DNA of 64,000 nt from contig MU057743.1 in NCBI GenBank assembly GCA_013265495.1, positions 36,636-100,635 on the forward strand, in the 5' to 3' direction. The notes beneath the pieces were generated by a model. That model was not told the origin of the DNA. It did no database searches and was given only the letters and a program-made list of their open reading frames with translations. The translations under genes were made by a program, and so were the position numbers. The stretch is from Vicugna vicugna. Lineage: Eukaryota. Position 1 is the stretch's first letter; every line of letters begins with the position of its first letter. Positions 56,322-58,225 of this stretch are shown piece after piece.

Positions 56322-57848
56322 TTCCCCCCTCTTGATGCTTTCACAACCCTTGTTGGAGTAAGCATCATCATTTACCTGTTGCAGGGGCTCATAATTGGAG
56401 GCTAACATCTGAAGTTTTATAGCCTCTATCCACTCACTGACAAAGTGGGTCAGGAAGTTTAGGACACAGGGCCCAAACAGCAGAACTGCAAAAATCAGGA
56501 GTAAGGGACCTATGAACGGTGCCAGCCAGGAGGTCCAGCCCCAGGGTCCTGTCCATGGGCTCTTATCAAAAATATGTTTTCTTTTTTTCACTCGGTCTTG
56601 TAACTCTTGAACCATTCCTCTGACAATTTCTATTTGATTGGCATAAAAACATCACTCTTCGTTTAGGAAGAGGCATAGTCCCCCCTCTTTGGCCGTGAGT
56701 TAAGTCCATACCCCTCCTGTTTTGTAAGACCACCTCGGCGAGAGAGTCAGTCTAATTTTGCAGAGTTCCCAGTGTTTCTACTATTTGTTGGAGATCGTGG
56801 CTGAATTCACCTGTAAGCTGATAACAGTAATAAGAGGAAGAGGTGATGCCCCCAATTCCTGTGCCTACCCCTGCTGCCACTCCGAGCCCCACTTGGAAGG
56901 GGATCAATTGTATAGCTCGTTTTATTCTCCGTGGATGCTGGTGAGTTATGACAGGGATGGGCAGACTTTGATTATTAGGCATAATGTCTATTCAGTGAGT
57001 GAGATAAGCCAAAGCACATAATCCAGCCCATCTGGCAGGGAGGCACCGTAGGCAAATTCGCCACATACAAAATAAGTCCCGTTATTAGAACACCATCCTT
57101 GTGTGGGTTGGCACCCTAGTCCCATACAGTGAGTGGTTTTAATACATTGATTTATAGTTAGATTGCCTTCTAAAGGATTAGTTCCATTGTTGAAATAACA
57201 TTCTGGTGCCTTGTAGGCGAGCTGTACCCAGTTCAGCCTGGAACTCCTAGTGGAAGAAACGGCATCGCTATGAGTTGTGGTGAAAGTCTTATTGAGGCTT
57301 GTCAAAGGTAAAGCCAGGTGCTGGATGGGGCCAGGACACAAGCATAGCCAGCAATCTTTAGCCAGGTCTGGATTGGAATGTTTGAGAATCCCATGGACTG
57401 CGGCAAACAGCCCATTTATTTGTGGATCCAGATCCCGAGGCTCGGCTAAAGATGGAAGTTTTATTGGCTTCCATGTAGGTAATAACTTCTAGTGTTGCCT
57501 CTGGACTGCTTGTTGAACAGCTTGCTGGCATGCCTAGTCCTGTACCCCTCCTCCATCACTCATCCCATAATGTGTTTGCTTGGTCCAGCACACCAGCTTG
57601 CAGGGTGTGCCATAGCATTTGATGCTAGATACATAAGAAGCCTTAATTGTGCCAATCCAGTAGGATTTTCCCTGATATGTGCACTCTGAAGCGCAGTCAT
57701 AGCATTGACTCGGCTGATAAGTATAAGCTGAAAATACAGGCCGGTACATGGACCACCTGTCACCCGGTTCCATGCAGGTGCATTGTACAGCCAAGGAGAG
57801 TGAGGGTATTAGCGTCAGTAACATCAGACTTATGATTATCTTAGACAT
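56295..57848 (-). pseudogene. env: ERV-A env (gamma-type), multiple stops and frameshifts
   Basis: Signal peptide MSKIIISLMLLTLIPSLSLA, SDGGGVQD motif, CWLC, furin site RRIKR, fusion peptide GLGVAAGVGTGIGG, LQNRRG immunosuppressive domain, TM anchor LAPFIGPLLLIFAVLLFGPC. Confidence 0.95.
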
Positions 57849-58225
57849 GATGCTGCGGTGATGGCACTGCACAAAAGAAGATATAAAATAGCTATCAGGA
57901 TTCTATGGCCTATGTTCCAGTCAGGTGGGGCGGCACTAGCTAGCCCCACTGCTAGTACGCAGACTGGTATAGAAAACAAGGAAAGAGGCAAGGGAGCACA
58001 AAAAAATACATTTAACAGCTGCGTTGAGCTTTCCTCAAGCTTCAGCCGTGCGTTGACTAGCCAGCTTCCGGGTGTGGCTAGAGCAGGGCTCGTCGATCCT
58101 TTTCTGGTCCCTCTTGATCTTGATCTTGAGCGGGTCTCCCGGGACACTCTCAATTTTCCAGGCACCCTCTGTCTGAGGTGCAGTCGCTCTCTTGACCCTG
58201 GAGTGGTGGATCCAAGGGATGATTC
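57836..58225 (-). CDS. candidate ERV accessory ORF between pol and env (Arg/Ser-rich stretch plus two hydrophobic segments)
   Basis: Stop-free for 129 codons from a TTGCAG|GAA acceptor-like site; C-terminus VFFCAPLPLSLFSIPVCVLAVGLASAAPPDWNIGHRILIAILYLLLCSAITAASCLR; stop overlaps the env start. Confidence 0.4.
   Translation of the reverse strand, partial: ESSLGSTTPGSRERLHLRQRVPGKLRVSRETRSRSRSRGTRKGSTSPALATPGSWLVNARLKLEESSTQLLNVFFCAPLPLSLFSIPVCVLAVGLASAAPPDWNIGHRILIAILYLLLCSAITAASCLR

Follow-up and report, generated by a model that had tools for sequence, protein, structure and literature searches.

A candidate fourth gene, predicted to encode a membrane hairpin, between pol and env of gamma-type endogenous retroviruses in Vicugna vicugna

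The window analyzed here is a 64,000-nucleotide stretch of the Vicugna vicugna genome. It contains a provirus on the minus strand in which pol and env are both broken; in the list of open reading frames (ORFs) pol is spread across three frames and env across four. Pfam searches of the flanks identified MLVIN_C, rve and RNase_H upstream of the small ORF that is the subject of this study and TLV_coat downstream of it, on two pieces of env. The element is a gamma-type (class I) endogenous retrovirus (ERV), with gag and pol in the same frame and one stop between them, an MLVIN_C domain and a TLV_coat domain. The stop-to-stop frames of gag and pol in a young copy of the same family, L031, abut one another (L031 4573..6168 and 937..4572). 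The surface subunit of this family (...GMSDGGGVQD...), which is called family A in the following, presumably resembles the envelopes of the HERV-W/RD114 type. The features of the region, all on the minus strand, are listed here.

58035..58610, minus strand: 3' end of pol (integrase C-terminal domain and tail), ending with TGA at 58037-58035; from the ORF list and a Pfam MLVIN_C match (E = 1.7e-20)
58031..58091, minus strand: about 60 nt at the end of pol, strongly conserved, a candidate cis element; from the identity between pairs of lineages
57836..58011, minus strand: small ORF, with ATG at 58011-58009 and the stop TAA at 57838-57836
57931..57993, minus strand: region coding for predicted helix 1 (approximate; codons 7-27 in intact copies), pyrimidine-rich; from AlphaFold2 and Kyte-Doolittle hydropathy
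57916..57930, minus strand: predicted turn A-P-P-D-W, codons 28-32, the best conserved part of the protein; from AlphaFold2 and an alignment of 20 sequences
57841..57915, minus strand: region coding for predicted helix 2, codons 33-57, which doubles as the branch-point-like CTGAT and the polypyrimidine stretch of the env acceptor; from AlphaFold2 and the joint in an RNA contig
57867..57868, minus strand: AG of the splice acceptor of the env mRNA, from the joint in an RNA-seq contig; the env exon begins ~18 nt before the env ATG
56295..57848, minus strand: env (signal peptide, SU, TM); from the ORF list and Pfam TLV_coat on two pieces

The env ATG of the window copy (57848-57846) is followed by the signal-peptide-like sequence MSKIIISLMLLTLIPSLSLA, and the TAA of the small ORF overlaps this env start. 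The frame of interest encodes two hydrophobic stretches, which are linked by APPDWNIGHR. A run of seven T (58006-58000) lies downstream of the ATG at 58011-58009, and this ATG is one base out of the hydrophobic frame. An earlier note, made from the letters of the window, had reported the pol stop at 58035, the env ATG at 57848, the TAA overlapping the env start and the ATG at 58011 that is one base out of frame; all four statements were confirmed, on the minus strand. The same note described the frame as stop-free for 129 codons. The frame is open as described, but its length is 138 codons from stop to stop (57836..58252), an extent that is private to the window copy.

The open frame in the window copy is, by itself, within chance. 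When the 187-nt spacer was shuffled 5000 times by each of two methods, an equally long open frame appeared 869 times with dinucleotides preserved and 1518 times with mononucleotide shuffling. All 11 stop triplets in the spacer are in the other two frames (7 and 4), a distribution that is only mildly suggestive. Sequence comparison indicates that the evidence for an ORF beyond chance comes from other lineages and not from the window.

The host genome (2.03 Gb) was searched with positions 57700-58300 of the window; this search gave 42 matches, and 30 copies were aligned. The T run is one base longer in 28 of the 29 other family-A copies, so that the one-base loss is private to the window copy. 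The length of 138 codons is thus an artefact of the private loss, which has put the ATG out of register with the hydrophobic frame and has left the window copy dead. In the copies with the longer T run the frame has exactly 58 codons from ATG to TAA, and an in-frame stop is located immediately before the ATG. The suggestion that the ATG at 58011 belongs to the hydrophobic frame by way of one extra base is thus borne out by these 28 copies, which read 58 codons. The 58-codon frame is open in 22 of the 30 family-A copies. At the position of the start codon 16 copies have ATG, 11 have ATA, two have ACG and one has AAG. Eight of the ATA copies, each on a different contig, have 0-2 mismatches over 3.6 kb and open pol and env frames. 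These nearly identical ATA copies are the result of a very recent burst, and the youngest sub-lineage is without an AUG.

A protein search of the host genome with P0009, one of the public relatives described below, gave 87 matches, which included diverged ERV lineages. The genome contains at least four such lineages (A, A2, B and C) with an ORF of 56-58 codons between pol and env. Lineage A2 comprises L070 and L089, with L039/L072 and L088 as intermediates; lineage B comprises L043 and L044 and ~20 decayed copies, and lineage C comprises L083 and L090. ATG-started copies and the same end position of the ORF occur in each of A2, B and C, and the ORFs of A, A2 and B align without a gap. The start codon seen in 16 of the 30 family-A copies is present in every other lineage too; a frame with no start, which the earlier note would have counted against a gene, is not what was found.

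The surroundings of the ORF are less constant. The pol tail ...CSSHT.KLASQ.TAEA, followed by the stop TGA, is common to lineages A, A2, B and C. The distance from this stop to the start of the ORF is 14, 22-23 or 68 nt among the lineages, and env starts inside the last codons of the ORF in A and ~26-29 nt past its stop in B and C. Relative to the ORF, env is in the +2 frame in A, B and C; relative to pol, the ORF is in the +2 frame in A and A2 and in the +1 frame in B. The ATG of the ORF is immediately preceded by an in-frame stop in A, A2 and B; a stop of its own closes the ORF in each of the four lineages. In lineage B pol appeared to run up to the stop that abuts the ATG; this was rejected, as the arrangement came from the frameshifted copy L050.

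Public sequence collections contain further relatives. A phmmer search with the natural 58-aa sequence P0003 (from L020) against 1.84 billion representative proteins resulted in 11 hits at E <= 1e-3. Four of these are tandem-repeat proteins; the other seven are co-linear small ORFs with 35-50% identity, which have in common a hydrophobic stretch, G-L, A-P-x-D-W, a second hydrophobic stretch and Y-L. The contigs that hold the small ORFs belong to JGI, ENA and Logan, and none of these ORFs has an informative name. A profile search found 26 related proteins in public metagenome data, many of them exactly 59 aa long and starting with MY; note that these relatives are predicted ORFs, hence selected for openness, and are known as protein only. 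A DNA pattern search for relatives gave 596 pattern matches in metagenome contigs and 18 in viral contigs, none of which was confirmed. A homologue search with P0003 at similar lengths, and with the alignment A4 at longer lengths, gave no match.

We analyzed the substitution pattern by pairwise comparison of natural copies, using the Nei-Gojobori method with 2000 codon bootstraps. Between lineages the pN/pS ratio is 0.25-0.6 in the frame of the ORF (Jukes-Cantor dN/dS 0.2-0.36); the other two sense frames give values close to 1. The pair L020-L070 (A versus A2) has 40 differences, which are distributed 11/9/20 over the three codon positions; its pN/pS is 0.33, with pN>=pS in 0 of 2000 bootstraps, and the values for the other two sense frames are 1.05 and 1.07. 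The ratio is 0.25 for L020-L039 and 0.27 for L070-L039. Lineages A and B can be aligned without gaps at a nucleotide identity of ~0.5; the differences are distributed 24/18/38, with pS 0.72 and pN 0.37, and the corrected dN/dS is 0.21-0.32 against ~1 in the other frames. For A-C and B-C the pN/pS is 0.51-0.61 (bootstrap P <= 0.0015). The Jukes-Cantor dN/dS of these comparisons is 0.22-0.36 in four of five pairs; in the fifth (L070-L083) pS is saturated and gives no ratio. In 20 of the 21 pairs examined between lineages, no codon position of the sense frame varies less than the second.

The constraint on the ORF can be compared with that on its neighbors in L031-L070, the one pair with clean flanks (L020 and L072 are frameshifted or deleted in pol/env and cannot serve as controls): pN/pS is 0.44 for the ORF, 0.50 for the last 62 codons of pol and 0.50 for the first 103 codons of env. 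Pairs within a lineage are near neutral (pN/pS 0.67-1.16), as expected for decay after integration. The value of 1.04 for L031-L020 would fit a relaxation of constraint in the ATA sub-lineage as well. The variants that are shared within family A (18 non-synonymous, 9 synonymous, 2 stops) are the same as in other frames and contain no coding signal; this test has no power, as the pol tail itself gives 24 non-synonymous to 13 synonymous variants.

The codon statistics show that the ORF has been under purifying selection between ERV lineages. The neutral dN/dS ratio named in the earlier note as an argument against a gene is not what these comparisons gave. The extra ORF is conserved as coding across virus lineages, judging from the same limits in four lineages and from the pN/pS ratios. 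Together with the hairpin predicted for the product, these data favor the earlier proposal of an accessory membrane-protein gene.

The same region has features of a different kind, and our initial reading was that of a pure splice-signal spacer: non-coding DNA between pol and env, in which the frame is open by chance and the hydrophobicity follows from polypyrimidine tracts (read as F, L, S, P and I). Between 17 and 30% of shuffles contain an open frame as long as this one, pyrimidines make up 79% of the first 16 codons of the ORF, after which comes CAG or TAG, the env acceptor with its branch-point-like CTGAT and pyrimidine stretch lies under helix 2, and the youngest lineage has no ATG. However, a spacer gives no account of the three-base periodicity, or of a pN/pS of 0.25-0.6 in one sense frame at 50-77% nucleotide identity. 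Nor does it explain why length, start and end are constant in four lineages while the flanking spacers vary from 14 to 68 nt, or why co-linear peptides with 35-50% identity exist in public data. The public homologues and the between-lineage codon statistics led us to drop this reading; it is now strongly disfavoured, and we consider it quite improbable that the spacer is non-coding.

We regard it as very improbable that the hairpin is part of a neighboring protein, either as an extended leader or signal peptide of Env or as a C-terminal extension of Pol that is made by read-through or frameshifting. Some public sequences have such a form: P0008, P0009, P0012 and P0036 run from the pol tail, or from its alternative frame, into the hairpin, and in P0014 the hairpin continues into an env-like C-terminus. 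The hairpin of lineage B shares its frame with the alternative reading of the pol tail, one stop lying between the two, and env is always +2 relative to the ORF in A, B and C. Fused forms, however, are what is expected from single frameshifted copies, as in L050. The stop directly before the ATG and the different frames relative to pol (+2 in A/A2, +1 in B) speak against an extension of Pol. An Env leader broken by a frameshift, which the earlier note had considered, fails on the different frame of env and on the ORF's own stop in all lineages. Furthermore, the env frame over the ORF has a pN/pS of ~1, Env has a typical signal peptide of its own, and the env exon begins after codon 48 of the ORF.

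The weakest alternative, that selection has acted on an antisense gene with transcription from the 3' LTR, as for HTLV-1 HBZ, and that the sense ORF is its shadow, can draw on a 144-codon plus-strand frame in the window (57822..58256), on wobble positions shared with the sense ORF and on an antisense pN/pS of 0.36-0.54 with no stops in A, A2 and C, but it is extremely unlikely, given three stops common to both lineage-B copies with an intact sense ORF, the lack of a conserved Met or end, an extent in family A that nearly coincides with the sense ORF as expected of a shadow frame, lower substitution scores (mean BLOSUM62 1.1-1.5 versus 2.2-2.3 for sense, A-B) and the low variability of sense second codon positions mentioned above.

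The structure of the product was predicted from an alignment of 20 natural sequences. L24, P29, W32, Y44 and L45 are invariant in this alignment, and C5, G23, D31 and A41 are nearly so. AlphaFold2 places helices at residues 7-27 and 33-57 and a turn at residues 28-32, with a mean pLDDT of 70.5. The mean hydropathy is ~1.2, there are 3-4 charged residues, and the Kyte-Doolittle profile agrees with the two helices. According to these models the product is a two-helix membrane hairpin with a conserved turn (T/A)-A-P-x-D-W and conserved Cys near both ends. At ~60 aa, with two predicted membrane helices and a short loop, it has the layout of a hairpin viroporin. Pfam contains no family for the candidate, and the only matches at E <= 1 were weak, chance-level ones to unrelated two-helix families. 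The best match in a sequence search of the PDB was PsbZ (E 0.038), at the level of composition, and the Protein Atlas gave no usable match or cluster for the hairpin protein.

On the evidence of these comparisons it is likely that the segment in the window is the broken copy of a genuine fourth gene of a gamma-type ERV clade, and that this gene encodes a membrane hairpin. The putative gene would have 56-58 codons, would start 14-68 nt past the pol stop and would end at or just before the start of env. Translation would begin at the ORF's own AUG. The protein may reside in membranes of the secretory pathway or in the plasma membrane as an accessory factor, and could act either as a viroporin-like hairpin or, through its conserved loop, as a modulator of Env or of a host membrane protein. 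The viroporin-like or restriction-antagonist role that the earlier note proposed finds no support in these data. It would be dispensable, as the most recently active sub-lineage has lost the AUG.

For RNA, 10 kb around L031 were compared with Logan contigs from three RNA-seq runs, all of the same study, and with a raw-read run of which 9 reads were placed; a window position is the L031 position plus 57099. The family occurs in RNA runs of reproductive tissue. A single joint with canonical donor and acceptor was found (the slash marks the cut). It connects the leader donor AAG/GTAGGA (L031 7208/7207) with TTAG/TGCC (AG at L031 769-768). The acceptor AG corresponds to window 57868-57867, that is 18 nt before the env ATG and inside codon 49 of the ORF. 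The joint is reported as 766/7207 on L031, 1 nt off the canonical cut, in one contig of run X1 (depth 31.7, 42 letters on the shorter side). A matching loose end at L031 7207 occurs in run X7; X1 and X7 are from one study.

It follows that the mapped env mRNA cannot encode the ORF, because the acceptor lies downstream of the ORF start. The earlier note had placed the gene on the env mRNA; this is not supported by the sole canonical joint found, which enters at codon 49 and excludes the ORF start. The protein would be translated from a different RNA. None of the joints listed connects the leader donor with an acceptor 5' of the ORF; contigs of this kind show presence and not absence. Joints from 1177/1179 to 4338 with inserted letters were rejected as splices; they stem from a pol-deleted subfamily, whose DNA itself has the deletion. 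A search of the examined loci for DNA copies of spliced RNAs found leader sequence in LTR positions only. The leader has 40 matches in the genome; for 12 of them the coordinates place an ORF match 3-6.6 kb away in the same contig, and 28 were unpaired.

The element at the end of pol (58091-58031) deserves attention in this context. Its mean identity between pairs of lineages is 0.78-0.87, versus 0.5-0.76 for the integrase C-terminal domain and ~0.5 for the ORF, and it is the best conserved stretch of the whole region. It holds CTCTAG/CC and GGCTAG/TC, which are followed by purine-rich words. Folding of the RNA of this element gave z = -0.15, hence no special structure. The element is a candidate for a cis signal; it could serve, for instance, as an upstream splice acceptor that carries a purine-rich enhancer, or as a signal to translate the next ORF. 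No ATG is present between it and the ATG of the ORF in A and A2; in lineage B the sole intervening ATG is at a site that has CpG in other B copies. An N-terminal extension of the protein is not possible in A, A2 and B, because an in-frame stop stands directly before the AUG.

A second subgenomic mRNA could be spliced into the pol-end element, in which case the AUG of the ORF would come first; we put this forward as a guess, and rate it a little below an even chance. Re-initiation after termination of pol on the genomic RNA is unlikely in our estimate. Stop-coupled re-initiation is used by caliciviruses and influenza B; we know of no case in retroviruses. The second acceptor is favoured over re-initiation, and the rest of the probability falls to other routes. 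A further reading joins several of these steps, and we consider it improbable: the clade would not be 'simple', and a 58-aa two-pass protein would be made from full-length RNA by re-initiation 14-23 nt past the pol stop, directed by the conserved 60 nt, and would act in a viroporin-like manner or as an antagonist of a host factor.

The arrangement has parallels in other retroviruses. HIV-1 Vpu combines a single transmembrane helix with a cytoplasmic domain, and it is translated from a bicistronic mRNA that it shares with Env. The earlier note had drawn an analogy to vpu/env, and the layout justifies it, as both are small membrane-protein ORFs just upstream of env that overlap the env start, and Vpu is likewise not needed for core replication. 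The analogy goes no further: the present product has two predicted helices (residues 7-57 of 58) with hardly any soluble portion, the only env junction found in RNA leaves out the start of the ORF, and there is no sequence relationship. A Pfam match to Vpu was not obtained, and two predicted helices stand in place of one helix and a cytoplasmic domain.

The p12(I)/p8 protein of HTLV-1 (ORF-I) is encoded in the pX region after env and made from a doubly spliced mRNA; it has ~99 aa and proline-rich motifs. Like the predicted hairpin, it is a small, very hydrophobic accessory protein with two predicted membrane helices, and it is dispensable in culture. No homology between the two was detected in the phmmer, Pfam and PDB searches. 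The orf-x of JSRV, a betaretrovirus, is located inside pol in another frame and is much longer. It resembles the present ORF as an extra, strongly hydrophobic ORF near the 3' end of pol in a 'simple' retrovirus and its endogenous relatives; the present ORF, in contrast, begins past the end of pol and is bounded by a start and a stop codon of its own. Outside the retroviruses, p7 of hepatitis C virus also has ~60 aa, a helix-short loop-helix fold and a conserved charged loop, features that are predicted for the ORF product. The two have no similarity in sequence.

Gammaretroviruses and gamma-like ERVs are described as gag-pro-pol-env only. According to PMC4798954, ERV-Fc, like other gammaretroviruses, encodes no accessory genes. 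For HERV-W, the coordinates given in PMC5016936 place the end of pol at 7692 and the start of env at 7720 of the reference. An additional ORF in a gamma-like ERV that is otherwise gag-pol-env has been inferred for the ancestral HERV-T, 5' of gag (PMC5388530); it differs from the present ORF in its position before gag, and the accessible text of that paper describes no membrane hairpin. The freely accessible full-text literature that was searched holds no description of a membrane ORF between pol and env.

A selected membrane gene between pol and env would add a new gene family to these viruses. The ORF would mark an ERV clade and would be a candidate for effects on Env, on receptors or on membranes. 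That the mapped env mRNA splices the ORF out poses the question of its expression, and one of the lineages that carry the ORF integrated so recently that its copies are nearly identical. As a minor observation, the T- and C-rich splice signals overlap both helix-coding regions.

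Family A, the ERV family to which the window provirus belongs, has been active very recently. Eight family copies on eight host contigs (L002-L009) are only 0-2 mismatches apart over 3.6 kb, and their pol and env frames are open within this compared stretch. The gag and pol frames are likewise open in L031, a young copy of the same family.

The window copy itself carries a change at window 57869-57876 (-), where five of six adjacent bases are private to it when compared with all 29 other aligned copies. These bases sit immediately 5' of the env acceptor AG; the change generates the sequence ttttgtgcag, an acceptor context that is richer in pyrimidine. 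The same change converts two Ile codons of the small ORF, the two-helix membrane-protein frame between pol and env, into Leu-Cys.

A conserved stretch of ~60 nt ends pol (window 58031-58091, -). Its identity across four ERV lineages is 78-87%, while the coding sequence beside it reaches only 50-76% in the same lineages. A search for a special RNA fold in these ~60 nt found none. The element may serve in splicing, as an acceptor accompanied by an enhancer, or it may act as a signal for translation.

A subfamily of the host ERVs (L015, L018-L028 and L030) has a pol deletion of ~3.16 kb, to which the joints 1177/1179 to 4338 of L031 correspond. In this subfamily env is nearly absent and one end of an LTR is found ~0.9-1.2 kb past the small ORF, which is retained, with its ATG present in most copies. 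The subfamily has increased in copy number.

In the diverged lineage B (L043, L044 and other B loci) the env stretch ~30-330 nt past the small ORF includes a signal peptide. Because the CWLC motif of SU comes after only ~90 codons, the lineage-B SU is very short; either its receptor-binding domain has been deleted, or this env is of an unusual type.

The loop region of the small ORF is also matched, with E values down to 1e-9, by four long tandem-repeat public proteins (P0004, P0006, P0007 and P0011). Their repeat unit includes S-T-A-P-A-D-W-A-T-G-H-S-L-V-V, and they may represent translated satellite.

The minus-strand provirus is truncated within RNase H at ~59805, where a plus-strand provirus adjoins.

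Features of the two adjoining proviruses (window coordinates)
59772-64000, +, second provirus, with its LTR from 59772 and an MA-like gag from ~61600
61829-63766, +, gag frame of the plus-strand provirus
55891-56324, -, LTR partner on the minus-strand provirus, compared with the plus-strand LTR

The two LTRs are 89-95% complementary, and the arrangement of adjoining proviruses on opposite strands suggests an insertion that was either nested or head-to-head. An N run of ~630 bases lies within the plus-strand gag-pol (~63136-63760).
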